Shown: positions 2,355 through 53,433, numbered from the stretch's first letter. The stretch is 54,249 nucleotides of DNA from a virus (IMGVR_UViG_3300049846_001989:1-54249), one strand, 5' to 3'. Notes: generated from the sequence alone by a model not told the origin. Program-made: numbers and translations.

Positions 2355-2584
2355 CCGTAATCCAGCTCATAGAAGCCTTGGTAACCCTGCCACCCGATAC
2401 CCCCGTCGCTATGGTCATGCACGACGATCCTGCCATGGAAATGTACGCCGTAGGCGAGGTCAAGCTTGGCGAAGAATTTGGCTTCGAAAGTGATAATCAC
2501 TGGATGACTGATGAATCGGCCGTAGTACTGATTTCTGAGGACATAGTACTGGTAGACCCCGAGGAGTTCGAGGAGGTCAAGTGA
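2348..2584 (+). CDS. Small acidic hypothetical protein
   Basis: GGGGAG RBS; overlapping operon; MTVxQLIExL N-terminus common in phage small proteins. Confidence 0.7.
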   Translation: MLTVIQLIEALVTLPPDTPVAMVMHDDPAMEMYAVGEVKLGEEFGFESDNHWMTDESAVVLISEDIVLVDPEEFEEVK

Positions 2585-2781
2585 TTACGTATGAAGATAT
2601 GCGTAGCGTATTAACTGATGAAGAATGGACAGCTTTACATAAAGCGTCCTCTAGAACTTACCTTCGAAACTTTACAGCCAAAAGTTATAAACAATGGCTG
2701 TATAAGTTCCATAACTGGGCCAGTACCCCACAAGGATATGATTACAGGTCCAGTGTCTATTCCCGTTTTGCGGTGCTTTAA
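2581..2781 (+). CDS. W-x-x-TPQG paralog family, member A
   Basis: MITYEDMRSVLTDEEW...WASTPQGYDY; GAGGAGG RBS. Confidence 0.75.
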   Translation: MITYEDMRSVLTDEEWTALHKASSRTYLRNFTAKSYKQWLYKFHNWASTPQGYDYRSSVYSRFAVL

Positions 2782-2782
2782 T

Positions 2783-2995
2783 ATGCTCACATTCGACGAC
2801 ATGCGCGATGTACTGACTGACAAAGATTTTGCAAAACTTGTGTTTTTAACGCGCAATTCCCCAGCAGCCAGAAAAACCATGGCTCCAAACTATGCCGACC
2901 TTCTTCAAGCTGTTTGGATAGCACTGCCTTACGAGCAACGTACAAACTCGGCCTTTTGGGGCAAGGTTTACGACCGGTTAAAGATACTCCAATGA
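2783..2995 (+). CDS. Paralog family, member B (diverged)
   Basis: MLTFDDMRDVLTDKDF...FWGKVYDRL; start reassigned to ATG 2783. Confidence 0.7.
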   Translation: MLTFDDMRDVLTDKDFAKLVFLTRNSPAARKTMAPNYADLLQAVWIALPYEQRTNSAFWGKVYDRLKILQ

Positions 2996-3201
2996 GCACG
3001 TTTAACGACATGCGCGATGTTTTGACTGCCAAGAAGTGGGCGGCTCTGAACCGCTTAGCAAAAAACAGCATAATTTCCAGAACGCGTGTCTCTGAAAACT
3101 ATTGGCGTTATATCCTAGGCATGTGCACTTGGGAAGTCACTCCAGAAGGGTGGCATTATTGGAACAGAGTCCACGACCGTCTACGTAGAGAACTTGAATA
3201 A
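2992..3201 (+). CDS. Paralog family, member C
   Basis: MSTFNDMRDVLT...WEVTPEGWHYW; ATGA overlap. Confidence 0.75.
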   Translation: MSTFNDMRDVLTAKKWAALNRLAKNSIISRTRVSENYWRYILGMCTWEVTPEGWHYWNRVHDRLRRELE

Positions 3202-3431
3202 TGATTACATTCAACGACATGCACGACGTTTTGACCGATGAAGAGTGGGAGGCCCTGAACCTCATCGCTTCTACCAAGCCCGCATTAAAAAGAGAAGAAA
3301 GCAACTCCTACGCAGAATGGTTGTTTGAAAACTTTACCTGGAGCCGCGCACCACAAGGCATAGAGTTTTGGCGAGCTATACATGGACGACTGGAAGTGCT
3401 GGATGACGGGCCAAACAATGCTGCGTTTTGA
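3201..3431 (+). CDS. Paralog family, member D
   Basis: MITFNDMHDVLTDEEW...WSRAPQGIEFW; TAATG overlap. Confidence 0.75.
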   Translation: MITFNDMHDVLTDEEWEALNLIASTKPALKREESNSYAEWLFENFTWSRAPQGIEFWRAIHGRLEVLDDGPNNAAF

Positions 3432-3621
3432 AGACCTCAAAGACATCCTGACCGAAGAAGAATACGCGGCAGCAGAAAAAGCCCGCATACCCTCTAAAAA
3501 CCAGTCGTTTCACAACTATGCCAATTTAATGCTCCACACGTTTGCCTGGAACAAAACGCCAGGTTTTTCACCAGACCACTGGAAAAACAAACACACCAAT
3601 CTTTTTTTACTTATACGATAG
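3418..3621 (+). CDS. Paralog family, member E
   Basis: MLRFEDLKDILTEEEY...FAWNKTPG...HW. Confidence 0.7.
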   Translation: MLRFEDLKDILTEEEYAAAEKARIPSKNQSFHNYANLMLHTFAWNKTPGFSPDHWKNKHTNLFLLIR

Positions 3622-4011: not shown

Positions 4012-6354
4012 ATGAAGATCAATTTCCTGAGTGCGCAGTTCCCAATAACAAAGACTTACAGCCAGACCAGGTCAGGTAACATAAACAAGACGCCCTATCC
4101 CTTTGTTTATGAAGTAAATTCTTTCGAATACCAGGTCCCTACGCTCGAGGCCCTATTCCCCCTGATACAACAGCACGCGGGGCAAGGGCACTGTCTCCTG
4201 AAAGGCGAGCTGGCCCGCCCCCTCGTCTCCGAGTCCCGGGCTGGCAGCACTGACCCCAAGCAGAAGACCGAGTGGGTGTGCCTGGACCTGGACGGGATTG
4301 GCGGGTACTCGACCGTGGACCAGTTCCTCCAGGACGTGGGTTGTGGTGAGACGGACTACATCCTTCAGTGGTCTGCCAGCCAGGGCGTGGGCGGCGCCCC
4401 CGAACTGCGCTGCCACATCTTCATGATGCTCGACGCGCCCAGGACCCCCGAGTTCCTGAAGCGCTGGCTGATGACCCTGAATCTGACCTGCTCACGGCTC
4501 AAGGAGCAGCTCCGACTCACACGTACCAACTGCAGCTTACGCTGGGGGCTCGACATCACGACCTGCCAGAACGACAAGCTGCTATACATCGCACCACCGC
4601 TGTTCGAGAACATGGAAGACCCCCTGGCCGGACAGGCCCGAATCTCATTCCACAAAGGCAAGCGCCGGCGCCTAGCTATTGGCACCCAGGTCCTCGAACG
4701 TGAGGCCCTGAGGAACCTGTCAGACCAACGGATCAACGAGCTGCGTCTCGGCAGCAGCATGCCCAAGCGCAAGACCACGAAGTACAAGGTACAGGGCTCT
4801 GTGGAATACATGCAGAACCCGGACACGGCCACCGTGACGGACATCAAGATCGAACGTGGCTTTGTCTACCTGAACCTCAACGGCGGGGACTCCTGGGCGT
4901 ATTACCACCCGGAGAACAACCCGTCGTTTATATACAACTTCAAGGGCGAGCCAGTCTATAAAACTGACGAGCTCTTGCCCGAATACTGGGCCGAGATTGC
5001 CCGACGTGCCCAGGACTACCAGCCAGACACCTCTGGAACGATCTACCTGGCCTTCAGGGAGTTTCGGACCGGTAACTACTATAACGGCACCTTCGATGGC
5101 GAGACAAGCCGCCTGAACCTGGCCATGGCCAAGAACGAGACACAACTCAAGCACTTCCTCAAGCAGCACGGGCAGCCGGTAGGCGACTATGTACCTGACT
5201 GGGACCTGGTGTTCGACCCCCACAGCGAGATCACTCTCGATGTGATGAACCGCACCGTGAACACGTACGTACCAAGCGTGTACATGGAGGACCGCTCGCC
5301 CCCCAAGGTGACGACTATCCCTCCCGTGTGCAACAAGATCATCAGGCACGTACTGGGCGACGACGAGGAGTGTGTACTGCGCTTCCTCAACTGGCTGGCC
5401 TGTGTGGTGCAGTTCAAGGACCGGACAGGCACCGCCTGGGTCCTGCACGGCACGCAGGGGACGGGCAAAGGCCTGCTGTTCCACCATATCATTGCCCCCA
5501 TCCTCGGAGAGCACAACACCTCGGCCAAGCGGATGGAGGAGCTGGAGAGTGAGTTCACAGGCTTCGTAGAGAACAAGTTCGTCACGGCTATTGACGAGAT
5601 CGAGGTGGGCAGCTCGCTGTACCACGCCAAGATCACTGCCAAGCTCAAGAACCTGATCGTGGAACCGAGTATCTCGATCCGCAAGATGTACACTCCGGCA
5701 TATATGTCCCGGAACTACAACAACATGCTCTTCATGAGTAACCAGTCCGAGCCGCTACAGGTGTCGCCGGACGACCGCCGCTTCAACGTGGCTCCATACC
5801 AGTTCAACAAGCTCCAGATCACGACCACCGAGGTGGACTCGATCGAGAAAGAACTCAAGCAGATGTATGCGTACCTGATGCACTACCCGGCGAACCGCGA
5901 CATGGCTCGCACGCCGCTGATCAACCAGGCACGTGAGACATTGATAGACATCAGCCGGTCAGCCGTGGACGTCGTAAGTGACGCCCTGCTGGCAGGCAAT
6001 TTCGGATTTTTCTGGGATCAGCTCCCGTCACAAAAACCGCCGGAGAGTGGGGCGATAACCAACCCGAACCACTTCAAGTATATGCGGTATCGAGAGCTGC
6101 TCCTGGGCATACTGGAACGTACAGAACCCTGTGCCCTGTCACGGGATGACCTGTACACCATGTATGACTGGTGCGATGGCAAGGTACCATCAAGCCCCAA
6201 CAAGTTCACGGCCCTGCTCAAGCATCACCGTATTCACTTGACCCCTGTCTGGGTGGGCAAGCGGACAACTCGAGGGATTGAAGTACAGTGGGACTTCTCA
6301 GATAAAGAGTGGGTAGCGGCCTTGAAAGAAGAAGTCAAAAACAACACAGTCTGA
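4012..6354 (+). CDS. Primase/polymerase-SF3 helicase fusion (NrS-1-like / DUF5906 C-terminus)
   Basis: N-terminal LDLDG and CH motifs of prim-pol type; Walker A GTQGTGKG, Walker B IDE, DDRRF. Confidence 0.85.
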   Translation: MKINFLSAQFPITKTYSQTRSGNINKTPYPFVYEVNSFEYQVPTLEALFPLIQQHAGQGHCLLKGELARPLVSESRAGSTDPKQKTEWVCLDLDGIGGYSTVDQFLQDVGCGETDYILQWSASQGVGGAPELRCHIFMMLDAPRTPEFLKRWLMTLNLTCSRLKEQLRLTRTNCSLRWGLDITTCQNDKLLYIAPPLFENMEDPLAGQARISFHKGKRRRLAIGTQVLEREALRNLSDQRINELRLGSSMPKRKTTKYKVQGSVEYMQNPDTATVTDIKIERGFVYLNLNGGDSWAYYHPENNPSFIYNFKGEPVYKTDELLPEYWAEIARRAQDYQPDTSGTIYLAFREFRTGNYYNGTFDGETSRLNLAMAKNETQLKHFLKQHGQPVGDYVPDWDLVFDPHSEITLDVMNRTVNTYVPSVYMEDRSPPKVTTIPPVCNKIIRHVLGDDEECVLRFLNWLACVVQFKDRTGTAWVLHGTQGTGKGLLFHHIIAPILGEHNTSAKRMEELESEFTGFVENKFVTAIDEIEVGSSLYHAKITAKLKNLIVEPSISIRKMYTPAYMSRNYNNMLFMSNQSEPLQVSPDDRRFNVAPYQFNKLQITTTEVDSIEKELKQMYAYLMHYPANRDMARTPLINQARETLIDISRSAVDVVSDALLAGNFGFFWDQLPSQKPPESGAITNPNHFKYMRYRELLLGILERTEPCALSRDDLYTMYDWCDGKVPSSPNKFTALLKHHRIHLTPVWVGKRTTRGIEVQWDFSDKEWVAALKEEVKNNTV

Positions 6355-7542: not shown

Positions 7543-8910
7543 ATGCGCACGCCACCGCCACTTTACGACCACCAGGTCAGGGACGTACAGTTCTGTCTTG
7601 ATAACCCACGAGTCTTCGATTCATCAGACCCCGGCTGCGGGAAAACCCGCGTGCAGATCGAGACATTCAGGATCAGGCGGCAACGTGGTGGCAAGTGCCT
7701 GCTAGTTATTTGCCCGAAATCCCTCCTGCGCTCAGCGTGGGAGAACGATTTCCACAAATTCGCACCAGAGATCACAGTCTCTGTTGCTCCGGCGGCCAAG
7801 CGTGAAGAGGCTTTCCAACGCGAGGCTGACGCTTACATTACCAATACCGACGCAGTCGTGTGGCTGGCCAAACAGCCGCCGCGCTTCTTCGCCAAGTTTG
7901 ACACGCTGGTTATCGACGAGATCACCGCGTTCAAGCATCACACCAGTCAGCGCTCGAAGGCTCTTGCCAAGATCCGCAAGCACTTCATCAACCGCGCTGG
8001 CCTGACAGGAACGCCAAACTCCAACACCATCGCAGACCTGTGGCACCCGATTTTCATCATCGACGACGGTAAGCGACTGGGGACAAGTTTTTACCAGTTC
8101 CGTGCTTCAGTGTGTTCGCCAAAACAAGTCGGCCCTGACCCTAACATGGTCAAGTGGGAAGATCGTGACGGCGCAGAGCTGGCTGTCGGCGGGCTGCTGA
8201 AAGACATCACGATCCGTAATATCTTCGAACAGTGTCACGATATTCCGGAGAATCTCCAGACTGTTATGCCATACCAGATGTCGCCCAAGCAGCGCAAGGC
8301 ATACGACCAAATGGAGAAGGCGGCCATCACACTCGTGAACAACAACGAGGTGGTGTCTGCCATCAATGCTGCAGTTGTGGCCAACAAACTCCTGCAGATT
8401 GCCTCAGGCGCTGTGTATGGTGACGAGGAAGAATACTCAGTCGTGGATCTCGACCGCTACGAGCTTGTAGCACAGCTCGTACAGGAGCGTACCAACCCGT
8501 GTGTCGTGTTCTTCAACTGGCGGCACCAGCGCGATGGACTAATAGAGGAGTTCGACCGGCGCGGGATTATTTACACGCTGGTTGATGGAACGACGACAGA
8601 CAAGAATCGTGAGGAGGCCGTACGCCTGTTCCAGGCCGGGTTCTACCACGTCTTCCTGGCACACCCTGCTTCTGCCGCACACGGCCTGACACTGACCAAG
8701 GCGACGACGACAATCTGGACAAGCCCGGTGTATAACCTTGAGCACTTTGTACAGGGTAACCGGCGTACGTACCGTGCAGGCCAGACCCAGCGGACCGAGA
8801 CGATCACACTCCTGGCTGAAGGCACCATCGAGACGAAGGTATATGAAAAAATGACCGCGAAAAATGTTCGTCAGCTCAACATGTTGTCAATTCTCAAGGA
8901 GCTCTCATGA
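7543..8910 (+). CDS. SNF2-like (SF2) DNA helicase
   Basis: DPGCGKT, IDEIT, GLTGTP, HGLTL and QGNRRTYRAGQ motifs. Confidence 0.9.
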   Translation: MRTPPPLYDHQVRDVQFCLDNPRVFDSSDPGCGKTRVQIETFRIRRQRGGKCLLVICPKSLLRSAWENDFHKFAPEITVSVAPAAKREEAFQREADAYITNTDAVVWLAKQPPRFFAKFDTLVIDEITAFKHHTSQRSKALAKIRKHFINRAGLTGTPNSNTIADLWHPIFIIDDGKRLGTSFYQFRASVCSPKQVGPDPNMVKWEDRDGAELAVGGLLKDITIRNIFEQCHDIPENLQTVMPYQMSPKQRKAYDQMEKAAITLVNNNEVVSAINAAVVANKLLQIASGAVYGDEEEYSVVDLDRYELVAQLVQERTNPCVVFFNWRHQRDGLIEEFDRRGIIYTLVDGTTTDKNREEAVRLFQAGFYHVFLAHPASAAHGLTLTKATTTIWTSPVYNLEHFVQGNRRTYRAGQTQRTETITLLAEGTIETKVYEKMTAKNVRQLNMLSILKELS

Positions 8911-8949
8911 CGAAACCCTGGTGGCAGGGCTGCCGCGCTAGTTAGAGAT

Positions 8950-9381
8950 GTGACTACTACCCGCCCAACCGTTGACTTCGGCGTACTGACTAATGAAGCG
9001 CGTGCTGCGTGGGCGGCTAATACTTTTCAAACGGCGCAAAACCGCGGGTTTGTGGAGCGGTTTTTAAGAGACAACATAAACGGTATACCAGACCAGGAGA
9101 ACGAGAACGTGGATTCAGAAAAACCAATAACTTACATCACCATGTTGCAGCTCATGACTCCTGAGGAACTGGAAGCGTTCGACATCGCATGGGAATCTGC
9201 CGGTGGGTATAGAAGGGGCTCAAGCTTACCCCCACTCCCAGAACTCAAAGCCAGAACACCACGCAGTTTTATAGATCGAACCCTGTATTGGAGAAAAACC
9301 CCACAAGGACACGATTATTGGGACGCTCTCAGCAATAAATTAAACAAAAGGTGGCAAGATGGCCTCCGTCACATACAATAA
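8950..9381 (+). CDS. Fusion of a capsid-N-terminus-like segment and a W-x-x-TPQG paralog domain (member F)
   Basis: Residues 8-39 align ungapped to capsid residues 4-35; C-terminal part has YWRKTPQGHDYW; alternative GTG start at 9109. Confidence 0.65.
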   Translation: MTTTRPTVDFGVLTNEARAAWAANTFQTAQNRGFVERFLRDNINGIPDQENENVDSEKPITYITMLQLMTPEELEAFDIAWESAGGYRRGSSLPPLPELKARTPRSFIDRTLYWRKTPQGHDYWDALSNKLNKRWQDGLRHIQ

Positions 9382-9604
9382 TATCCACAAATTCTTGCGT
9401 AAAAGTGCCATGCAAGAGCTGGAGCTTGCGCTTATAGACTCCCGCACCGTGTTCACAGAATACACCGTCGCAGATCTCGTACGCCCGTGCGCCTCCGACT
9501 GGATCCACGATCTGTTCAACTGGGAGAGTTCACCCCAAGGGCCCTATTATTGGTTCGATACGTATCAATCCTTGCTCGAAAGAGAGGAGAAAGAATCGTG
9601 GTAA
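9359..9604 (+). CDS. Paralog family, member G
   Basis: VTYNNIHKFL...FNWESSPQGPYYW. Confidence 0.75.
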   Translation: MASVTYNNIHKFLRKSAMQELELALIDSRTVFTEYTVADLVRPCASDWIHDLFNWESSPQGPYYWFDTYQSLLEREEKESW

Positions 9605-9825
9605 CCTACGCCGATATGCACACATACCTGACTCATGAAGAAATGGAAGCGCTGGAAACGGCGCTGAGCAGTCCTGATACAAACGTTCTTGATAAACCTC
9701 TGCCAGAATTTAAAAGAAACTGTGCATCATCGTGGTTATTCTGGTTTTTTAACTGGGGGTCTTCTCCACAAGGACACAACTACTGGAGTAGCGTACACAA
9801 GCGCTTGGAACGGGAAAAGGTATGA
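9598..9825 (+). CDS. Paralog family, member H
   Basis: VTYADMHTYLTHEEMEAL...FNWGSSPQGHNYW; GAGGA RBS. Confidence 0.75.
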   Translation: MVTYADMHTYLTHEEMEALETALSSPDTNVLDKPLPEFKRNCASSWLFWFFNWGSSPQGHNYWSSVHKRLEREKV

Positions 9826-11690
9826 CAATCGAAATCCGTAACCGCGAATACCAGATCGTCACTCTCGATTTCGAGACGTACTACGACACTGCCAAGGTGT
9901 ATTCACTCAAGAGCCCGTTCCTGAACCTGTCAGAGTACGTCCGGCACGAGCTGTTCAAGGCGCATGGTGTGGGGATCAAGATCGAGCAGGGCAAGACGCG
10001 CTGGTATACTGGCGCGAAGGCTGAAAAGGAAATCCAGAAAATCGACTGGGACAACACAGCACTTCTGTGCCACAACACCTATTTCGACGGCTTCATCCTG
10101 CACGAACACTACGGCGTGCACCCGGGCTTCTACATGGATACCATGTGCATGGCCCTGGCCGCCCACGGAGCTAACTCCAAGGTAGGCCTGGACTTCCTGG
10201 CCCGGCTCCACGGACTGAGCGGCAAGACCAAGGCGCACGCGCTGGTCAACACACTCGGCAAGCGCGACCTGTCGAAGGAAGAACTCAAGGCGCTGGGCGA
10301 GTACTGCGCCGACGATTGTGACGACACGTACGCGCTGTTCCATAAACTGTACACTTACGTGCCAGACGACGAGCTGCGCCTGATCGACCTGACGCTGCGC
10401 ATGTTCTGCGATCCCGTTATCTACCTTGACGAAGCCAGATGCCGGGCAGAGTATGACCGCGAAGTGCGGGAGAAACAGGAGGCGATCGAGTTCGTCAAGG
10501 AACTGTGTACTGTCACCGAGCTGCAGAGCAATGAGAAATTCGCTGATCTGCTCCGGGCGCAAGGCGTGGAACCGCCGATGAAGATCAGCCTGACTACACA
10601 GAAACCGACGTACGCCTTCGCCAAGACAGATTTCGATTTCGTGGACCTCATGGAAAACGGCACTCCAGTGGTCCAAGCGCTGTGTAATGCCCGGGTCCGA
10701 AATAAAACAACAACGAACGAGACCCGGGCATTGCGCTTCCTCGAAGCAGGCAAATGTGGCGCGCCTATTCCTGTGTACCTGAAATACTGCGGCGCCCACA
10801 CGTTCAGGTGGAGTGGCGGCAACAAGCTCAACCTCCAGAACCTGATGCGCGGTGGCGAGTTGCGCCGTTCACTACTAGCCCCGCCCGGTTATCGCCTGGT
10901 TGTAGCAGACAGTGCCCAGATTGAAGCCCGTACACTCGCGTGGCTGTCCGGCGAGCACGCCATTATCGAAGCGTTCGCTAACAAGCGCGACGTTTACAAG
11001 ATGATGGCCTCGGCGATTTACAACGTCCCGGAAGACCAGGTTGACAAGGAGCAGCGCTTCGTAGGTAAGGTCTGCGTTCTCGGCCTCGGGTACGGGATGG
11101 GGGGCAGCAAGCTGAACGACACACTGGCCAAAGGTGCCATGGGGCCGAAAGTCGTACTACCTACCGAAGAAACCACACGTATCGTCGCTGCGTACCGGGC
11201 TGCCAATAAGGCGATCGTCGGTATGTGGCGCCGCGCTGAAGAAATTCTGATTGACATGATTCTCGGCAATACCGGCTCGTACGGCCCGCTTACATGGGGC
11301 AAGGGCTTCATCAAGATGCCCAACGGGCTCTTCATGCAGTACGCCAACCTGAGCGGAGAAATCCGTTACGACCGTAGCGGTCGTGCGCGGTTGAGTGACG
11401 CGTGGTACGAAGGTAAACGCGGTGTCAAGACCTACATTTACGGTGGGTCTGCCACAGAAAACTGGGTCCAGAGCCTAGCACGGTGTATCGTAGCTGGTCA
11501 GATGTTGACGATCAGTGAGCGCTACCGTGTAGTCACCATGTCACACGACGAAATCGTATGCCTGGCCAAAGAGGACGAAGCCGATGAGTGCTTGCGCTTC
11601 ATGATCGAGACCATGTCAACTGCGCCACCTTGGGCCGAAGGCCTACCACTCGCGGCAGAAGGAGGCCACGATGTCTGTTACTCGAAGTGA
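9822..11690 (+). CDS. DNA polymerase, family A, with 3'-5' exonuclease
   Basis: Exo I LDFET; RWSGG.KLNLQNL; motif A DSAQIEAR; motif B R..GK..VLGLGYG; motif C HDEIV. Confidence 0.95.
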   Translation: MTIEIRNREYQIVTLDFETYYDTAKVYSLKSPFLNLSEYVRHELFKAHGVGIKIEQGKTRWYTGAKAEKEIQKIDWDNTALLCHNTYFDGFILHEHYGVHPGFYMDTMCMALAAHGANSKVGLDFLARLHGLSGKTKAHALVNTLGKRDLSKEELKALGEYCADDCDDTYALFHKLYTYVPDDELRLIDLTLRMFCDPVIYLDEARCRAEYDREVREKQEAIEFVKELCTVTELQSNEKFADLLRAQGVEPPMKISLTTQKPTYAFAKTDFDFVDLMENGTPVVQALCNARVRNKTTTNETRALRFLEAGKCGAPIPVYLKYCGAHTFRWSGGNKLNLQNLMRGGELRRSLLAPPGYRLVVADSAQIEARTLAWLSGEHAIIEAFANKRDVYKMMASAIYNVPEDQVDKEQRFVGKVCVLGLGYGMGGSKLNDTLAKGAMGPKVVLPTEETTRIVAAYRAANKAIVGMWRRAEEILIDMILGNTGSYGPLTWGKGFIKMPNGLFMQYANLSGEIRYDRSGRARLSDAWYEGKRGVKTYIYGGSATENWVQSLARCIVAGQMLTISERYRVVTMSHDEIVCLAKEDEADECLRFMIETMSTAPPWAEGLPLAAEGGHDVCYSK

Positions 11691-44992: not shown

Positions 44993-46102
44993 TTAAGCGT
45001 GAGCGACGAAGCAGTTGAGGACGCCAAAATCCTGGGCAGTAGCGGAACCGGAGTACTGGTTCACATACTGTGGCTTCAGGAAGCCGAGGATCTTGCCAGT
45101 AGAAATACCCAACTGGTTGCCGTAATCGAACTCTTTCTCGTTCCACTCAGGAGCGCCCAGATCTGCCATGCCCAGCGCCTGGGCGCCGCAGAACAGAACG
45201 TGAGAACCTTCAGCGATGTCAGAAGAGTCGCCGAAGTCGTTGGTGGTAGAGGTCCACTGTGGTACGTGGCGGAATTCGTGAAGCATAACTCCGTCGATCA
45301 GTACGCTGTCGCCAGTGAACAGTTCGTTGCCGCCGCCGCGAGTCTGAGCGTAGCGCAGGTTCTGTTTGTAGTCGTCGCTCTGCTTCAACAGCATCATAGC
45401 CTGCGGGCACAGGAACGCGTGGTAGATCTCCTGGCTGCCGTTCTTCACGCCGCGGATATACTGCTCTTTGGCGTACTTCTTCAGCTCCATGATCATGTTC
45501 CACGTCGGCGTGTCGCCAGCGTCTACGTCGCCAATGGCGGCGGTCGTTTCCAGGCCAGTAGAAGCGTCCCAACGGCAGCGGCGCAGATCGGATGCAGCAG
45601 CTACGTCAGCGGCGAATTCCAGGTTCTGGAGGTCAGAGCCTACGCGGGCTACACCTTTAGGGGTGTATGCGTAGCTACGACCGGCCAGGGTCAAGAACGC
45701 CAGCTGGTCGATACGGTCTGCCAGCCAGTACGCGAGAACGTCGCGGCTGTTAGAGCGGAACTCAACAATAGACTTCTGGTCGCTGATGCGGCCCTTGCTA
45801 CGGTTGGCGTGGCGCAACTGATCGACGCGGATGACCTGTTCGTAGGTCTTCATCGCCTCTTCATTGCCTTCCAGCGTGCGGTCGCCCGCTACACCGTCGC
45901 CTTCGAGGTCAGCCAACAGAGTCATAACGGCGCGGGCGCCCTTCTCTGATTTTTTAACTTCAGTGACGTGCTGGATCAGGCTGTTCGGGCCTTTGCCGAG
46001 AAATTGTGAAACGAAGGACTGGTTCCGGGCGTGTTTCCACAGATCCATACTCCAAGCTGTTTTTTGCTCGCTGGTCAAAGCGGCGAAATTGGTAAGTGCC
46101 AT
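44993..46102 (-). CDS. Major capsid protein (N4-gp56 / DUF4043-like)
   Basis: GDGVAGDRTLEGNEE, DQLRHA and FCGAQALG motifs; GAGGAGG RBS. Confidence 0.9.
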   Translation of the reverse strand: MALTNFAALTSEQKTAWSMDLWKHARNQSFVSQFLGKGPNSLIQHVTEVKKSEKGARAVMTLLADLEGDGVAGDRTLEGNEEAMKTYEQVIRVDQLRHANRSKGRISDQKSIVEFRSNSRDVLAYWLADRIDQLAFLTLAGRSYAYTPKGVARVGSDLQNLEFAADVAAASDLRRCRWDASTGLETTAAIGDVDAGDTPTWNMIMELKKYAKEQYIRGVKNGSQEIYHAFLCPQAMMLLKQSDDYKQNLRYAQTRGGGNELFTGDSVLIDGVMLHEFRHVPQWTSTTNDFGDSSDIAEGSHVLFCGAQALGMADLGAPEWNEKEFDYGNQLGISTGKILGFLKPQYVNQYSGSATAQDFGVLNCFVAHA

Positions 46103-46207: not shown

Positions 46208-46356
46208 GCGTTGTCCCGCGCCAAGTACGCCGCCAGTGTGTCGCCGGTGAGCACTGAAATATGCGCGCCATTGTGTACCAGCGCGTGTTCCGGGTTCGCT
46301 TCGAGGTATTCTTCGAGCTGCGCTGCCTGGGCTGGATATTCAAAAGTCTGGATCAT
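46204..46356 (-). CDS. Small hypothetical protein (50 aa)
   Basis: ATGA overlap with the upstream gene; GAGG RBS. Confidence 0.55.
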   Translation of the reverse strand: MIQTFEYPAQAAQLEEYLEANPEHALVHNGAHISVLTGDTLAAYLARDNA

Positions 46357-47240
46357 ACGGGAACCTCGGCAGTGATTAGCATGGCGGAGCACCCAATAAC
46401 GTCAGTAGCCGCGCCGCTGTGCTTGAGTGAGTAGAAGAGGTAGAAATCGCTCTCTGTATCCACGGACGCTGTGTATGGGGTGCCCGAACCAGTGGTGGTG
46501 TTCTGGTAGTTCGGAGCGGAGCGCTGCGCGTCTGTAGCGCGGTTACGAATCACGTGCCGGCCGCTACAGGTGCTAGCTGACGCCAACGACTGTAGCCCAA
46601 CCATCGTGTTGTTTCCAAGGGTCGCAGTGTCGGTGCCGATATAAACGTAGGTGTTTTTGGCCCCGGCGGTACTTGCAGCCTCGAACAGCGCTTCGGAATA
46701 CATCGCTCCGTATGCGCCCAATATAGTACCGGGTACCTGCTGCACAAAGAATGTGACCTCAGATGTGGAGCCCGTCAAACTACCGCCTGATAGATCTGCG
46801 AACGCCGTCGGCGACGCAGGTGCTATCGGCAGGGTACCGGCCGCCGGCGTGTAAGTGTTGTTATACACGACGCCTGCAGTGGTCGAACTCATAGTCGCGT
46901 AGTAGAAGCCTGCAGCGCTGGCGGTGTACAGGGCGCCTGCGGCAAAATACATGTAGCACTTCGTGTATTTCGTTGTCACGGCTGTGCCAAGTACGAATGC
47001 GCCCACTGCGCTGATAGACGATAGTGTGGGTGCGATGACACAGGGGAGCGGCATGTAACCGAGCAACACCCGGGCGTGGGACGGGACCCAACGGGTGCCA
47101 TTGCTACGGAACTCTGTCCCGGACGGGCCGATGTCTGTAACGAAGATCGTCTGGTTGGGGTACGAACCGGCTTCGATCCGGTTCGCCCACGTGCTTACAT
47201 CAATCGCGTCGTTGGAACGCGGCTGGAGGTATCTGGACAT
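46353..47240 (-). CDS. Putative virion appendage / head-fibre protein
   Basis: Thr/Ala/Gly-rich beta protein; IFVTDIG...F.SNGTRW motif. Confidence 0.6.
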   Translation of the reverse strand: MSRYLQPRSNDAIDVSTWANRIEAGSYPNQTIFVTDIGPSGTEFRSNGTRWVPSHARVLLGYMPLPCVIAPTLSSISAVGAFVLGTAVTTKYTKCYMYFAAGALYTASAAGFYYATMSSTTAGVVYNNTYTPAAGTLPIAPASPTAFADLSGGSLTGSTSEVTFFVQQVPGTILGAYGAMYSEALFEAASTAGAKNTYVYIGTDTATLGNNTMVGLQSLASASTCSGRHVIRNRATDAQRSAPNYQNTTTGSGTPYTASVDTESDFYLFYSLKHSGAATDVIGCSAMLITAEVPV

Positions 47241-47643: not shown

Positions 47644-48621
47644 TCAGAGTTCATCACCGCGCATCTTGGCCAGATCGGCTTCCGGGATCTTGGCAAACTG
47701 CTCCAGCGTCATCCGCTTGATCGTCGGCGCTGCCGGCGGGGCTGCAGTCTTGCCACGAAGGTCCGTAGGCTGGGGCTGGGCTGCGGCGGCTGCGGCTGCC
47801 TTGCGGCGGGCCTGCTCCTCGCGGCTGGCGGGTGCGTTGGCCGCTTGTTTGGCCGGTTCCTGCGGCGCACCAGCGACATATTTAACTGCCCGCTGCAGCG
47901 CCTGCACCTGCTCCATGCCCGAGAGCATGAGCGAGCGCATCAGGCCTGCAACCTCGTCAGCCATGACCTGGTCATACTCATCCGCCCGGTCCGGGTTCAG
48001 CGCCGGGTACTGCTGCTCGATACTGGCCAGCGTGGACTCATACTTCAGGGTGCCGAGCGTGCGGGCGCGTGCGGTCTCTGCCAACTGGTTGGCCCGCTCC
48101 GTCTGGATATACTCCTGGAGCTGGTTAATCTGCTTGCGGACTTCACGAGCCTGCTCGCGCTCACCGTCTACCAGCAGCTCCTCGTATTTGTCCTGCAGGG
48201 TATCCAGCTGCTGGGCAGCTGCGGCCACCACATCGGGCTTGGCCGGGGCGGCCTGCTGGCGCTGGGCGGCCTCGAAGGCGGCCAGGCGGGCTTCGGCCGC
48301 CTCTGCACGGGCGCGTTCGCGGCCTACAGCCTCGTCGAAGCGGGTTTTAGGGATACGGATGCGGGCTTCGCGCGCTATCCGGGCCTCCTCCGCCTCGCGC
48401 TCAATGCGCTCTTCGTCCGTTTCCTCGCCTTCAGCATCAAGATCCGGACTCGCGCCCGCGTCATCGTCTGTTTCGACCGGTTTGGCGTCATCGTCGACCT
48501 CCAGATCGGTGTCTGTGGGGGTAAAGTCGTTACCAAACGGGTCGTCAACTACCGGAACGGCCGAACCGCCCAGGTCTGTGCCGTCGCCGGCGGGAGAAAG
48601 CAAGAAATGGCGGGTTTTCAT
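47644..48621 (-). CDS. Capsid scaffolding protein
   Basis: Acidic N-terminus, IPKTRFDE motif, coiled coil, C-terminal LAKMRGD; lies between portal and MCP. Confidence 0.8.
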   Translation of the reverse strand: MKTRHFLLSPAGDGTDLGGSAVPVVDDPFGNDFTPTDTDLEVDDDAKPVETDDDAGASPDLDAEGEETDEERIEREAEEARIAREARIRIPKTRFDEAVGRERARAEAAEARLAAFEAAQRQQAAPAKPDVVAAAAQQLDTLQDKYEELLVDGEREQAREVRKQINQLQEYIQTERANQLAETARARTLGTLKYESTLASIEQQYPALNPDRADEYDQVMADEVAGLMRSLMLSGMEQVQALQRAVKYVAGAPQEPAKQAANAPASREEQARRKAAAAAAAQPQPTDLRGKTAAPPAAPTIKRMTLEQFAKIPEADLAKMRGDEL

Positions 48622-50786
48622 GTTTTATTTTCCTCTGGTGGGGGAGAAAGTGCCTGTCTCACAGCGTCCAGGCGGGCTGTTTTTACTTCATTTTCACGGT
48701 CCAGCTGGGCTTGGCGCGCCTCGGCGGCGTGTTTGTCCCGCTCCAACTGGATTTTTGCGTCAAGTTCGCGCTGTTTCTGCGCCAAAGTGACGTCGATCTC
48801 ATATTTCTTCATCGCCAGCTCTTTTTCTGCCTGCTGGATCTCCGCCTGCAGCTTCTGTGCCTCCAGCGACAGCTCCTGCGGGAGAGAAGCGTCCGTGCCA
48901 GCCGGTTGACCGGCCTCCTGAGCCTGGGCGAGTGCCTTCTGGGCCTGGGCCTGTTTCAACCCGACATCTGCTTCGAGACCGGCAACTTCCGCCTCAGCCT
49001 TCCGGGCAGCCAGTTCTTTCTGCTTCTGGGCTTCAGGAGAGTTCTGGTCACCTTCCATGGCCTGAACAATCTCGGCCTTGTCTTTCAGGCGCGACGATTG
49101 TATCAGATATTTGTCCGGCAGCTGTACACCGGCTTCAGTGCGCAGGCGCAGGGCCTGGTCAAACTGTGTTTCCTCGAACGTGTCACGATCCGGCTGGTTC
49201 GTAATCACGACGGCGTATTCGCCCAGCGTCAGGTCGTTGAGGATCTGGCCTTCCGGCGTTGGCTGGTTCACCTGCACGGTGTCCGTGCGGTTCGTCATCT
49301 TGTCGGTGGTGATGCGCACCAGGCGAGGCTCTGTGTAGTACTCCTGCACGATGTCCAGGATGTTCCTGGCCAGCAGGTAGTCTGTGCGGTTCAGGTTGTC
49401 CTGGACCTTGGCCAGGTTCGACGAACCACCAGCCTGGTTGGCCTTGACCGACTTGGCCGACACGTCTTCGCGTGCAAACCCGGTCATGTAATCGCTCACA
49501 CCCGAAATGCTCTTGACGTGCTCTTCCGCCTTGTAGCTGATGCGGTCGAGCCCCGTAGGCGTCGGGTTCGGCGTGATCTTCTCGAGGTTGTTCAGGTCGT
49601 CGAGCTCGATCACGATGCCGCTCTGGGCGCCGCGCTGCTCGAGCTCGCCAGCAGACATGTTCTGCAGGGCGTTGCGCTTGACCTTGTAGCCGCTGTTGGC
49701 CGTGGTGTTCACCACGTGCAGCTCCTGGCTCGACACCTTGTTCAGCAATTCCTGCGGGCCCAGCAGGTTCTCGACGATGCCCACAGTCTTGCCACGGCGG
49801 AAGTGCGGGAAATAAGGCACGATCGTGAAGTGTTTGTAGGGGGACCAGTCGTCGTGCAGGACCTCGTCGCCGGCCACCACGGTCCAGCGGATGCGCTTGA
49901 CCAGCTTCGTGGTGATGGCCTGGTCAGGGTTGCCCGCCAGGTACTGGTCTACCCGTGCGCGGTCCCAGCTATCCGGTACCGGGCGCATGTCGCCCGTCTG
50001 CACATCGACGAAGTGCATGAGTTTGTCCAGCCGCTTCCACTGGTAATCCAGTACGCGGATGCGGCGGTTGTGCCGGGCGGCTACCTCGGAGCTGTCCGCC
50101 TGGCCATAAGGCACAGACAGGCCGAAGCGGTCGCGGTTCATGTACAGGTCGTCTGACGCCCCGTCCACAATCGTATCCGACGCAGACTCCAGTTTATCGG
50201 CTACGGCCTTGCCGTACATCATCTCGATGTCGTCAAGTGACTGCCATTCGGTATAAATAACATCGGCCCAACCGTCGGGGTCGTAGGAATCCGCGTCGTT
50301 GTCGATCAGTACGTTCTTGCAATTCCGCTGGGTGACCCGCACCTCGCCGCGCAGGTTATCGGTGAAGTCCAGGCGGACGTCGTAGAAACCCCGGCTCGTG
50401 ATGATCCCATCTGCGAACACGTCGCTGCGGACCCACGTCAGCTGGTTGTTGTCCCCGATCTGCATGTAGACCTTGGTCAGGGCGTCGGCGACTTCAGCGG
50501 TGGCCCCCTCGTTACGAGGCTTGAATGCGGTGTCTGTGCGGTTGAAGATCTGGGCGCCCATCACGTTGCTGATGGTACTGATGATCTTGTTGATCGTCAG
50601 GGCGGGGCGCTTGACTGACTTAAGGTACGCGAGGTCCTCCTTCTCCCACTGCTGGCCGGCGAAGAAATTCTCACACTTCTCGGCCTTCAGCACATAGTCC
50701 ATGTGCCCGTTGTCACGTAGGAACGTGTACCTGGCCCAGATCTGGCGCGCCAGGTCAGTTCCGGTTATTGTGCGCTTCTGGGCCAT
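48618..50786 (-). CDS. Portal protein (P22-like)
   Basis: FFAGQQW, RPALTINKI, SPYKHFTIVPY, PQELLNK motifs; follows TerL. Confidence 0.9.
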   Translation of the reverse strand: MAQKRTITGTDLARQIWARYTFLRDNGHMDYVLKAEKCENFFAGQQWEKEDLAYLKSVKRPALTINKIISTISNVMGAQIFNRTDTAFKPRNEGATAEVADALTKVYMQIGDNNQLTWVRSDVFADGIITSRGFYDVRLDFTDNLRGEVRVTQRNCKNVLIDNDADSYDPDGWADVIYTEWQSLDDIEMMYGKAVADKLESASDTIVDGASDDLYMNRDRFGLSVPYGQADSSEVAARHNRRIRVLDYQWKRLDKLMHFVDVQTGDMRPVPDSWDRARVDQYLAGNPDQAITTKLVKRIRWTVVAGDEVLHDDWSPYKHFTIVPYFPHFRRGKTVGIVENLLGPQELLNKVSSQELHVVNTTANSGYKVKRNALQNMSAGELEQRGAQSGIVIELDDLNNLEKITPNPTPTGLDRISYKAEEHVKSISGVSDYMTGFAREDVSAKSVKANQAGGSSNLAKVQDNLNRTDYLLARNILDIVQEYYTEPRLVRITTDKMTNRTDTVQVNQPTPEGQILNDLTLGEYAVVITNQPDRDTFEETQFDQALRLRTEAGVQLPDKYLIQSSRLKDKAEIVQAMEGDQNSPEAQKQKELAARKAEAEVAGLEADVGLKQAQAQKALAQAQEAGQPAGTDASLPQELSLEAQKLQAEIQQAEKELAMKKYEIDVTLAQKQRELDAKIQLERDKHAAEARQAQLDRENEVKTARLDAVRQALSPPPEENKT

Positions 50787-50799
50787 CTGGGTCTCCGGG

Positions 50800-53433
50800 T
50801 CACGAGGTCATGTGGGTCAGGTTGCCACCCGACACCGTGTTGAGTATCTTATCACGCCACGATGGTACCTTGGGCGGGTCCGGAAGTCTAGGAGGCGCCG
50901 CATTTGTTATCAGCCTGATCGCCCAGGCCAGGGCATCCACGATGTCGTCGTGCCCGCCACCAGGGAACTGCAGCATCTCCTGTAGGAGTTCAGTCTTCCA
51001 CGGCGGGTCCATCGGGAACGATACTTTCCCCTGCTGCATCCGGCCCTGCAGGGGCCTGGCCCGGGCCACTTTATCCGTCAGCGGTTTCATCACTTCGATG
51101 GTAGGAAACACCTTCCGCTCATCCATGCGCTTGCGCAATAGCGGCTCAATTGACCGCCAGATCTGGCCGTCTTCGACCCCGACTACGTAGCGTCCACCGG
51201 ATATCCGCATGTAGCGCTCGGCTACCGTCACGATGGAATCCACGATCTCGAAACTGTCGCCCCTGAAGCGTACGAGATCCGCCACGTATGCGTGGTCATA
51301 GTCGTCGTGCGCGATCGTCGCCCCTACCGTGAAGTCGTTCTGCTGCTTCAAGCCAATCGCGAAGTCCCAGGCGGTGTAGTAATTCACGTGCTCGCCGAGA
51401 GGCGGCAAGTGCTCGAACCTGAAGTGCTCCTTCCTGAAGTACAGGCCTTCGTCGGGGACAGGCGCCTGCTGGTAGAGGGCAGACCATATCCGCGGCTGCA
51501 GGTTGGCCCGTATCTTGTGCAGGGCGTTTGTGGAGTAGCGCTCCTCGTGCAGCGCCTGGTCTGGACCGCGCAACAGGGTGTAGTGTTCCGGGGCGTCCTT
51601 GATCGGCTCTGCCGTCCGGATGATCTCATGCCTGGGCGACTCCTCGTCGCGGTACTCATACGTAGCACTGAGGGCCGGGTACAGCACCACCTCGAACTGG
51701 TCAGCCATCGGATCCAGGCGCATGCGCTGCTGCAGCCTGCCGGCGAGGTCGTCGTAGTTCCACCACGTCTCGATGAGCAGTATCCCGCCGCCAGGGGCGA
51801 CACGCGTCGAGGCTGTGGACTGGTACCACTCGTCGATCAGCTGGCGGCGGTCTGCGCTGTCCGCCTCCTCCATATTCTTAATTGGGTCGTCTATAATTAA
51901 GATATGGCAGCCCTTGCCAGTTAATCCGCCCCCCACGCCGGCAGCTACGAATCCGCCGCCCGCGGTCGTGGCCCAGGTCTCTGTGGCCTGTGACTCGGGG
52001 TCCAGCTGGGTGTCCGGAAAAATCGAGTGGTAGTAGGGATCGCGCAGCAAGCCCCGAACCTTGCGCGAGAAAATCATGGGAAGGTCCAGGTTGTACCCCG
52101 CATTGATTATCCCGTGCGTCGGATTGTGCCCCAGGTGCCAGGCGGGTAACCGGATCGAGGCCAGCTCGCTGTTATGCGTCGGGATCAGTGCCTCGCCAAC
52201 CAGGTACAGGCCGTCGGAGGAGACAACCTCGACGCACCGGGCGGAAAATGGCTCGACCCTGCGCACTGCGCGGACGGTCCGGTACTTGGGCCGGCCAGAC
52301 CGCGTCGGTATCTTGCGCTCCAGTGCGAGGCCCCCACCACTGCGGTCATAGGGGACCCAGCCGACCACCCAGTACCCGCCACCTCGGACCGTCGCACCAG
52401 ACCAGCGGATCTTTCTCTCGCGGCGGTCAGCCGGGCGGTACTGGATCGTCACCCGGTAGCCGAGGCTTCGGGCCAGGCGCCGGATATCGTAGGCCAGGCC
52501 GAGGACGTTCGTGCACACCCGGACCCTCCCGTCGCGCCTGCACAGTGACCCGTCTGTATCAACGATGCCGCCGAGCAGCTCGCGCCTGTGCTGTTCAGGC
52601 AGTGAGAAGTAGACTTCTGGTATGTGCTTACAGCCGAGTACGCCGAGTGCCCGCAGCTTGGCACGTATGTGCAAGAGGCACACATACTTGCAGCCCGTAT
52701 TCGCGTGTATTCGCACGGCACCGAATTCCTGGTAGGAAGGAAGACGTGCCAGGATCTTGTCCAGATCCTCGGGTGCGCCGCAAATCACCCCGGAGTCAGT
52801 CATCCCGTCACCGAGCCACACGCCCAGGGTGTAGGGGTCGACCGGGACCTTGGTATGCCGGCCGTGTAACGGGAAAGTCGGGGGGAGCAGCAGCTCGCCC
52901 CGGGTGCTCTTGGCCAGGATGTCGGGGAGCTCGCGGGTTTCGTAGGTGGCCCACTGCGCCCGGCGGCGATCGTAGACAGTCCACTCGTGGTTCTCGTGAC
53001 ACCTGATCTTCTCCCCGTCGGAGAACTCCACCTCACAGTCGCCCATGACCGGGTCGGCCACTTCCTTGATCACTACCGGTCGGCCACTCGGGTGGAAGAC
53101 CATGTCCCCGGGGAGCAGCTCGCCGTGGGTGATCCACCCTCGGGTCTGGGTGAAGACCGGGGTTTCGTCGTAGATGGCTTTTCCGTGGCGGGGAGGGACC
53201 AACAACATCAGCCGGGGGGACTTCTTCTCGGTCACCTCTCTGGAGAAGCGCTCGAGTCGAGCAGCCATGTCGTTGTGTACCCAACCCGCCTCGTACTCAG
53301 GGAGCGTGGACTTGGTAAAGTGGATTAGCCTGCGGCGGGACAGGATCCTCTTGGCCAGCTCTTGTTTTGCCAGGTCCCCCGGTGGGAGGGGTTGTTCCTG
53401 GTTCTCGTTATTGTCCGTTGGTGGTTGAGTCAT
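50800..53433 (-). CDS. terL: Terminase large subunit (intein-containing)
   Basis: Walker A PPRHGK|S split by the intein; Walker B IIDDP; ALYQQAP; nuclease AWDFA and HDDIVDAL motifs. Confidence 0.95.
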   Translation of the reverse strand: MTQPPTDNNENQEQPLPPGDLAKQELAKRILSRRRLIHFTKSTLPEYEAGWVHNDMAARLERFSREVTEKKSPRLMLLVPPRHGKAIYDETPVFTQTRGWITHGELLPGDMVFHPSGRPVVIKEVADPVMGDCEVEFSDGEKIRCHENHEWTVYDRRRAQWATYETRELPDILAKSTRGELLLPPTFPLHGRHTKVPVDPYTLGVWLGDGMTDSGVICGAPEDLDKILARLPSYQEFGAVRIHANTGCKYVCLLHIRAKLRALGVLGCKHIPEVYFSLPEQHRRELLGGIVDTDGSLCRRDGRVRVCTNVLGLAYDIRRLARSLGYRVTIQYRPADRRERKIRWSGATVRGGGYWVVGWVPYDRSGGGLALERKIPTRSGRPKYRTVRAVRRVEPFSARCVEVVSSDGLYLVGEALIPTHNSELASIRLPAWHLGHNPTHGIINAGYNLDLPMIFSRKVRGLLRDPYYHSIFPDTQLDPESQATETWATTAGGGFVAAGVGGGLTGKGCHILIIDDPIKNMEEADSADRRQLIDEWYQSTASTRVAPGGGILLIETWWNYDDLAGRLQQRMRLDPMADQFEVVLYPALSATYEYRDEESPRHEIIRTAEPIKDAPEHYTLLRGPDQALHEERYSTNALHKIRANLQPRIWSALYQQAPVPDEGLYFRKEHFRFEHLPPLGEHVNYYTAWDFAIGLKQQNDFTVGATIAHDDYDHAYVADLVRFRGDSFEIVDSIVTVAERYMRISGGRYVVGVEDGQIWRSIEPLLRKRMDERKVFPTIEVMKPLTDKVARARPLQGRMQQGKVSFPMDPPWKTELLQEMLQFPGGGHDDIVDALAWAIRLITNAAPPRLPDPPKVPSWRDKILNTVSGGNLTHMTS
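52171..53178 (-). mobile_element. 336-aa class 3 intein with LAGLIDADG homing endonuclease
   Basis: Starts with Ala (AIYDETPV) and ends PTHN|S; W in HENHEW, C in ARCVEV, T in PTHN; endonuclease motifs LGVWLGDG and LLGGIVDTDG. Confidence 0.9.

Follow-up and report, generated by a model that had tools for sequence, protein, structure and literature searches.

A diverged copy of the major capsid protein N-arm in a 5'-truncated accessory gene of an uncultured phage

Introduction

The internal proteins of phage T4 carry a capsid targeting sequence, an N-terminal peptide some 10 residues long that attaches to the scaffold core and is removed by the prohead protease. In procapsids of phage 80alpha, the C-terminal helix-and-hook of the scaffold contacts mainly the N-arm helix of the capsid protein, and in SaPI1 the proteins CpmA and CpmB redirect capsid size (PMC5644958). 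In phage GP4, the N-arm tip and the E-loops carry the cement trimers (PMC9698820). The pirate element SaPIbov5 encodes Ccm, a full-length capsid homologue that is incorporated as pentamers and interferes with assembly (PMC8569155).

Here we analyse a 54,249-bp phage record from IMG/VR with an estimated completeness of 84% (the whole stretch of DNA is called the window throughout), for which it had been predicted that a small early gene carries a copy of the N-terminus of the phage's own major capsid protein (MCP). The segment concerned is homologous over positions 4-55 to the N-arms of PF13252 MCPs such as A1002 gp50 (26DE/44NY) and GP4 gp2 (8H89). Unlike in these proteins, the arm occurs alone, inside a non-structural accessory protein of the replication module, and it is only 31-38% identical to capsid arms, whereas the first 70 residues of the MCP family show a mean column identity of 87% among themselves. 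Like Ccm, the segment is derived from a capsid protein, is encoded elsewhere than in the capsid gene and could interact with the assembly machinery; unlike Ccm, it comprises only about 55 residues, lies in the phage's own genome and lacks the complete capsid fold. The C-terminal helix of the 80alpha scaffold and of SaPI1 CpmB marks the N-arm helix as a docking site for assembly factors (PMC5644958). Those proteins represent the partner's side of that interface, whereas the copy described here would represent the arm side. The parallel with the T4 capsid targeting sequence, likewise a short module that routes a non-structural protein into proheads, is one of idea only, as the T4 signal is not capsid-derived and has no sequence relation to the copy, which is internal in the long allele of its gene.

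Results

Genome organization and head genes

The plus strand of the window carries replication genes from position 1 to about 17 kb, and the minus strand carries the head and tail genes, including terminase, portal, a scaffold-like protein and the MCP. The genes that frame the present analysis are as follows.

4012-6354, plus strand: primase-like protein
7543-8910, plus strand: SNF2-type helicase (Pfam SNF2-rel_dom 1e-20 together with Helicase_C; phrog_62 4.5e-104)
8950-9381, plus strand: residual ORF of 143 aa from GTG 8950, between helicase and polymerase
9822-11690, plus strand: family A DNA polymerase
44993-46102, minus strand: MCP (PF13252 2.3e-39; phrog_334 6.4e-73)
47644-48621, minus strand: candidate scaffolding protein of 325 aa, between portal and MCP
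48618-50786, minus strand: portal (phrog_156)

Judged by the MCP, the cultured phages closest to this one are KPP25, phiR18 and CRPAP1904, which are podoviruses of Pseudomonas (54.6% identity), and the capsid of A1002 (26DE/44NY), a phage of the same genus as these three, matches the window MCP at E 2.3e-125. We infer from position and composition that the product of 47644-48621 is the scaffold: its N-terminus is acidic, its middle is rich in Ala, Glu and Arg, its C-terminal motif is conserved and ends in RGD, and in 55 of the loci searched a homologue is encoded upstream of the MCP. This C-terminal motif (hydrophobic-K-M-S..EF.KL.E..LAKLRGD) is found at 47647-47730 on the minus strand and in 41 related loci (alignment A2), with F, R, G and D invariant, and judged from sequence conservation it is likely the capsid-binding end of the protein.

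Two further features of the head region were observed. Between the scaffold candidate and the MCP, at 46353-47240 on the minus strand, lies a 295-aa ORF that is rich in Thr, Ser, Ala and Gly and matches no known family; since in many related loci no more than about 150-190 nt separate the end of the scaffold gene from the start of the MCP, this ORF looks like an insertion into the head module. The ORF of the terminase large subunit (50800-53433, minus strand) encodes 877 aa, against 623 aa annotated in CRPAP1904, and its PHROG matches fall into two parts (about 51-447 and 422-854), with a weak match to a DNA-primase family at 83-312, which suggests an N-terminal extension or an inserted domain.

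Similarity of the segment to the MCP N-arm

Residues 8-39 of the residual ORF (8971-9066) align without gaps to MCP residues 4-35 (46093-45998, reverse strand) with 12 of 32 positions identical, exactly as in the original prediction, and BLASTP widens the ungapped match to 18 of 58 identical residues (31%; E 4e-7 as a single comparison). The two counterparts are:

8971-9126, plus strand: MCP N-arm-like module, corresponding to MCP profile positions 4-55
45932-46093, minus strand: part of the MCP gene encoding residues 4-57, the N-arm and beginning of the E-loop, to which the copy corresponds

Shuffled sequences had been named as the yardstick for this alignment, and the similarity stands well clear of them. 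The Smith-Waterman score is 81, against a mean of 27 (sd 4.2, maximum 50) for shuffles of N66, the 66-residue N-terminal piece of the 143-aa ORF, none of which reaches 81 in 5000 trials; nor does any of 2000 shuffles of the MCP (highest 53), and the Gumbel P for this score is 5e-8. In an all-versus-all comparison of the 278 ORFs of at least 60 aa in the window, the pair formed by the copy and the MCP ranks 12th at E 4.1e-5, behind 11 pairs that are all pairs of paralogues; the best plainly spurious pair appears at 4e-4. Multiplying the E of 4.1e-5 by the 278 queries gives a window-wide corrected significance of about 0.01. A profile built from 47 MCP N-termini of IMG/VR relatives (alignment A1) matches two sites in the genome, the MCP itself and 8971-9126, the latter at E 2.2e-8, and hhalign yields a probability of 90.9 and E 1.1e-6. 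The same register recurs in matches to other capsid proteins. When the 143-aa protein is compared by phmmer with all PDB sequences, the best match is the A1002 capsid N-terminus (26de_S, E 0.036), with query residues 9-60 on chain residues 11-62 in the register of the window's own MCP, and by tblastn 18 of 80 MCP loci match the copy at 32-38% identity, again in that register.

The resemblance is confined to the arm. Only MCP positions 4-57 align with the copy, which has no E-loop hairpin, P-domain or A-domain, and neither the 143-aa protein nor the 66-aa piece has any Pfam or phrog_334 match, the segment having diverged too far for the Pfam and PHROG capsid models. A phmmer search of 1.84 billion representative proteins with the 66-residue piece returned no capsid protein at E 0.001; its three matches at E ≤0.001 were the 109-aa call of the gene itself and two repetitive proteins (9 and 6 stretches), which we take as spurious. 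The segment was also considered as a degenerate TPQG domain, the small domain that follows it, and none of the eight paralogues of that domain was significantly similar (P 0.054-0.9).

Chance or convergence between two amphipathic helical segments, instead of common descent, would be in keeping with an identity of only 31% over a short stretch and with the failure of the Pfam and PHROG capsid models and of the large protein search to connect the segment to capsids. We consider such an origin very improbable, as composition-keeping shuffles never come near the observed score, the similarity is significant after the window-wide correction and with the family profile, the match is collinear, ungapped and begins at the start of the MCP, and a blind PDB search arrives at a capsid N-arm in the same register. 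With BLASTP, shuffles, hhalign and profile in agreement, the prediction that the segment copies the N-terminus of the phage's own MCP holds, and at the level of sequence 8971-9126 is a genuine, strongly diverged duplicate of the MCP N-arm.

Extent and conservation of the copied segment

Domain limits for the MCP were taken from its homologues A1002 gp50 and GP4 gp2. The N-arm of A1002 gp50 spans residues 3-51 and its E-loop residues 52-98 (PMC13730344), and the N-arm of GP4 gp2 spans residues 2-47 (PMC9698820). By these limits the copy takes in nearly all of the N-arm and the opening residues of the E-loop, with no other part of the HK97 fold. It keeps the invariant residues F6, L9, T10, W17, A25, N27, F30 and F34 of the PF13252 family. 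The N-arm is the best-conserved part of the MCP in this family, whose whole proteins are about 63-66% identical to the window MCP. Even a near-identical version of the phage's own MCP type (L032) is only 34% identical to the copy, within the 32-38% range of the others, so no sampled capsid gene is a closer donor.

Identities between copy and MCP by codon position number 27, 29 and 12 of 58, and Nei-Gojobori estimates (NG86) over 54 codons give a saturated pS of 0.98 and a pN of 0.50, with no indel. Saturation at synonymous sites alone, together with the intact frame, speaks for an old or fast-evolving copy that was kept as protein and against a freshly decaying non-coding scrap. Identities fall on 13 of 32 columns that are conserved in the MCP and on 4 of 22 others, a difference that is not significant (Fisher p 0.14).

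A 295-residue allele and the putative deletion in the window

In the protein collection the same gene is represented by a 109-aa call from GTG 9052 (P0001, 3 contigs), and a longer protein of 295 aa, P0004, encoded on a 2214-bp contig, falls into the same 90% cluster. Residues 1-7 of P0004 (MTKPWWQ) are those of the seven codons from ATG 8907 (8907-8927); after them P0004 carries 137 residues that are absent from the window; and its residues 145-295 then align over 151 residues with 8926-9378, in the frame of the ORF 8950-9381, with three substitutions, all within the C-terminal 30 residues. The residual ORF equals residues 153-295 of the long allele, which is laid out as a mostly helical N-terminal region of 144 residues, the N-arm-like module (residues 160-213) and the small TPQG domain. 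A single-sequence fold of P0004 has a pLDDT of 46. Rather than forming the N-terminus of its gene, as had been proposed, the capsid-like segment is internal in the intact allele, behind the 144-residue region. The traces of this allele in the window are:

8907-8945, plus strand: stub ORF of 12 codons (MTKPWWQGCRAS) followed by the stop TAG 8943-8945
8925-8928, plus strand: CAGG, the deletion junction, a 4-bp microhomology that flanks the missing stretch on either side in the long allele

We infer from the comparison of the two sequences that the window allele is the product of a 413-nt frameshifting deletion between two CAGG tetramers, the figure of 413 nt being derived from the length of P0004 and two 30-nt loose contig ends. 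The missing stretch amounts to codons 8-144 plus 2 nt and hence shifts the frame. The stub is what is left of the original 5' end of the gene for the 295-aa protein, with which it shares its first seven codons. The long form is ancestral, since a seven-codon remnant, a strong Shine-Dalgarno (SD) sequence and an ATGA coupling in front of a 12-codon stub would otherwise be unexplained.

Public contigs were compared over 8300-9900 in four runs. All are assembled from DNA, so that rare variants are lost and translation starts are not visible. Run X3 includes a contig that departs from the window at 8928 and another that joins it at 8925, which places the long form on both sides of the junction. 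In run X2, from a different study, a 1857-nt contig covers 8300-9589 without gaps in the window's short form (depth 7) and a second contig departs at 8928 into the long form (depth 4.6), so that both forms are present in one sample. Run X1, possibly the source of the window itself, contains the short form only. The loose contig ends translate to P0004 residues 8-18 behind 8928 (X2 and X3) and to residues 136-144 before 8925 (X3). The deletion allele is present in the data of at least two studies, which indicates that the phage can do without the N-terminal 137 residues and perhaps without the entire gene.

The X3 contig of the long allele also differs from the window at seven positions, all within 63 nt (9265-9327) near the contig end; two of the seven fall inside the TPQG codons, and none is listed in 8929-9264. 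These differences may stem from a patch of recombination or from gene conversion among paralogues, or they may be an artefact of the contig end.

The TPQG domain and its paralogues

The in-frame fusion of the capsid-like segment to a paralogue of a small TPQG domain, the other half of the original prediction, was borne out. A profile of the paralogues matches 9127-9363 at E 9.5e-26 (this copy being part of the model), and its start at 9127 directly abuts the end of the capsid-like match at 9126. Further support comes from phrog_16354 (E 7.4e-7, residues 109-134) and from BLASTP against paralogue 3 (E 7.8e-9). The window contains eight TPQG copies in two arrays (2581-3621 and 9127-9825), arranged as follows.

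2581-3621, plus strand: tandem array of five TPQG paralogues
9127-9381, plus strand: TPQG paralogue 1 (phrog_16354-like), a small domain with four helices joined by two short bridges
9359-9604, plus strand: TPQG paralogue 2, free-standing, starting with ATG
9598-9825, plus strand: TPQG paralogue 3, free-standing, starting with GTG; the DNA polymerase follows from 9822

The seven other paralogues are free-standing genes of 66-81 aa that start at the same motif; the one at 2783-2983 is degenerate and has lost the motif. The small phage proteins of phrog_16354, which the C-terminal domain of the gene matches, are encoded by separate genes of 66-81 aa in tandem, both in the window and in the loci L004 and L005. 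Unlike the other copies of this type, only the one at 9127-9381 has an N-terminal extension. Free-standing tandem TPQG copies are also found in unrelated phage contigs, and no TPQG domain is present in three related records (G001-G003). An AlphaFold2 model of the domain is a small helical unit with a pLDDT of 87. Searched with Foldseek, this model found nothing in the PDB at E ≤0.001 and in BFVD reached E 0.18 at best, with uncharacterised phage proteins; in a wide structure search with VIA the best Z was only 3.7. From its sequence the gene looks like a young mosaic, in which a free-standing TPQG gene that retained its ribosome-binding site was fused behind an ORF ending in the N-arm copy.

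Start sites in the window allele

SD duplex energies were computed against a generic anti-SD motif, with a mean of -5.7 kcal/mol over 23 reference genes. The candidate starts compare as follows, all on the plus strand.

ATG 8907: native start, strong, with AAGGAG upstream (-7.7 kcal/mol)
GTG 8950: weak (-2.9 kcal/mol; 47% of random positions are as good)
GTG 9052: -3.3 kcal/mol (35% of random positions are as good)
GTG 9109: strong (-7.4 kcal/mol; 4% of random positions are as good)
9096-9111: internal ribosome-binding site (AGGAG, 8 nt, GTG 9109) just before the TPQG domain

The choice between starts at 8950 and 9109, on which the original prediction had turned, proves to be one between two secondary sites. 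The native ATG 8907, which overlaps the helicase stop TGA 8908-8910 in an ATGA, is out of frame with the residual ORF in the window and yields the 12-codon stub, and in this allele the N-arm-like module is left without a good start. GTG 9109 is placed after most of the capsid-like segment and just before the [IV]TY motif that opens the free-standing TPQG paralogues. From its strong SD and its paralogue-like position, the predicted default product is a 90-aa TPQG protein, which keeps only the last six residues of the capsid-like match. Judged by these sequence signals, the capsid-like module is probably not made in this genome, or made only at a low level. Low-level synthesis could proceed by re-initiation at GTG 8950, which lies 4 nt behind the stub stop, or by read-through of the helicase TGA, which is conceivable as the residual ORF is in frame with the helicase.

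Only TGA 8908-8910 separates the residual ORF from the helicase, and after the deletion 156 open codons lie behind it. A C after a stop codon makes a weak termination context.

It is possible, although we would not expect it, that the 143-aa protein is made from GTG 8950 by re-initiation and works as an N-arm-tagged TPQG protein, the deletion having trimmed a dispensable region. The stub whose TAG precedes GTG 8950 by 4 nt retains its strong SD and its ATGA coupling to the helicase, the residual frame is open for 143 codons, and the persistence of the deletion allele in at least two studies can be read in the same way. Identity with the long allele points in this direction as well, with no listed difference over 8929-9264 in X2 or X3, but it may merely reflect a recent deletion. 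The SD before 8950 is no better than 47% of random positions, the automatic gene call picked 9052 and not 8950, and, given a strong start of its own at 9109, the short product is the default.

Distribution among relatives and databases

In the two closest relatives found (G002 and G003; helicase 69-71% and polymerase 58-66% identical), there is no TPQG domain and no second N-arm, and only an unrelated 59-aa gene lies between helicase and polymerase. The original prediction had named absence or decay of the segment in all relatives as what would refute it; absence does hold for these two. Among other large records that contain this MCP family, six of them at least 90% complete, the N-arm profile finds the MCP alone in 10 of 10. 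The 59-aa gene of G002 and G003 was tested as a homologue of the capsid-like segment (P 0.2 and 0.026) and of the MCP (P 0.94 and 0.26) and is related to neither. Its two copies, at 5366-5545 in L006 and about 5377-5556 in L007, are the small ORFs of L027 and L030; they are mutually related (P 1e-8) and unrelated to anything at that place in the window.

Wider searches gave the same picture. A homologous-protein search with the 143-aa protein returned only its own 109-aa call, residues 1-66 were not found as a region of longer proteins, and P0004 as query found no homologous protein and no usable match in the ESM Atlas. IMG/VR and metagenome scans with the 143-aa protein and P0004 returned only matches to the TPQG domain (L004/L113, L005 and L112). 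Against GenBank phages, blastn found no match and tblastn only two TPQG matches (E 0.3-0.4). A weak tblastn match in L008/L025 (E 0.87), which falls in the wrong frame of an unrelated ORF of 245 aa, was set aside as chance. In the records and databases covered, the capsid-arm copy is by its sequence lineage-specific, restricted to one uncultured lineage, with no closer source among the 1.84 billion representatives.

This distribution bears on whether the segment is a functionless mosaic relic, a piece of a capsid gene captured by illegitimate recombination, held open only through translation of the TPQG domain and free of selection for binding. Such an origin would sit well with a copy confined to one lineage, absent from G002, G003 and the 10 other large records and lacking any relative in the large protein search. 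It would also suit an internal SD and GTG 9109 that look vestigial of a recently fused free-standing gene, a viable deletion allele and an enrichment at conserved MCP columns that is not significant. Free drift is hard to square with a pS of 0.98 beside a pN of 0.50 over 54 codons without an indel, an objection that fails if the donor was an unsampled, already divergent capsid gene. We regard the relic explanation as doubtful for the gene, while the label suits the window's own allele fairly well.

Discussion

The comparisons presented here provide an anatomical and evolutionary account of the ORF at 8950-9381, which we consider likely to be correct: a diverged N-arm copy resides in a lineage-specific accessory gene, and the window's allele of this gene is derived by deletion. 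The readings of its function that we weigh as rivals overlap with this account and are not in competition with it. A literature search turned up no earlier description of a capsid N-arm duplicated into a non-structural phage gene, and the case is one of sequence from a capsid protein finding a second use elsewhere in the genome, as part of ordinary phage mosaicism.

The role of the N-arm helix as a docking site in 80alpha and SaPI1 suggests how the module could act. In the intact protein an N-arm mimic would engage the partners of the capsid N-arm, the candidates being the C-terminal end of the scaffold in procapsids or neighbouring capsid or cement subunits, and by analogy such binding would tether the intact protein to assembling heads or modulate their assembly. 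Among the ideas put forward in the original prediction, routing or partner binding would by this analogy fit established N-arm biology best, and both sides of the proposed interface, the N-terminal 70 residues of the MCP and the C-terminal motif of the scaffold candidate, are strongly conserved in the family. The proposal that the module engages the scaffold C-terminus or capsid neighbours, and thereby tethers the protein or modulates assembly, is nevertheless a tentative one to which we give a minority share of belief. The gene sits in the replication module and not among the head genes. A long protein that has no detectable relative and folds with a pLDDT of 46 supports no particular function.

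Some bacterial defences, such as CapRel and Lit, sense capsid proteins, and capsid proteins are prominent triggers of bacterial immunity. An early-made N-arm copy could in this setting serve as a decoy or trigger that binds or saturates a sensor, with deletion where it becomes a liability. The gene does lie within arrays of fast-diversifying small early genes, with eight TPQG paralogues in the window and none in relatives, and alleles with and without the module coexist in one sample (X2). Even so we hold this role to be quite unlikely, as no known anti-defence family was matched in a search scope that had no dedicated anti-defence library, the phage is uncultured and without a known host or defence system, and the other 240 residues of the long protein would be left unexplained. 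A broader proposal combines both roles, such that the intact 295-aa protein would be an early-made N-arm mimic that docks on scaffold or procapsid, or is read by a host sensor, and the deletion would be a natural off-switch where the protein is costly; this is unlikely as well, if somewhat less so than the decoy taken by itself.

The locus also holds a lesson for annotation. The ORF is a 5'-truncated allele whose apparent N-terminus is a deletion artefact, which came to light only once alleles from different metagenomes were compared. If the module is inert, the case still documents, together with its junction, the origin and decay of mosaic phage genes. If the N-arm mimic is real, this would be a first example of a phage that has turned part of its own capsid protein into a working module of a non-structural gene. 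Scaffolding proteins, and the pirate-element proteins that mimic them, take hold of capsid subunits by the N-arm, and a second, diverged N-arm in an early accessory protein would be a natural probe for a scaffold or immunity interaction, one whose testing is helped by the coexistence of intact and start-less alleles in nature.
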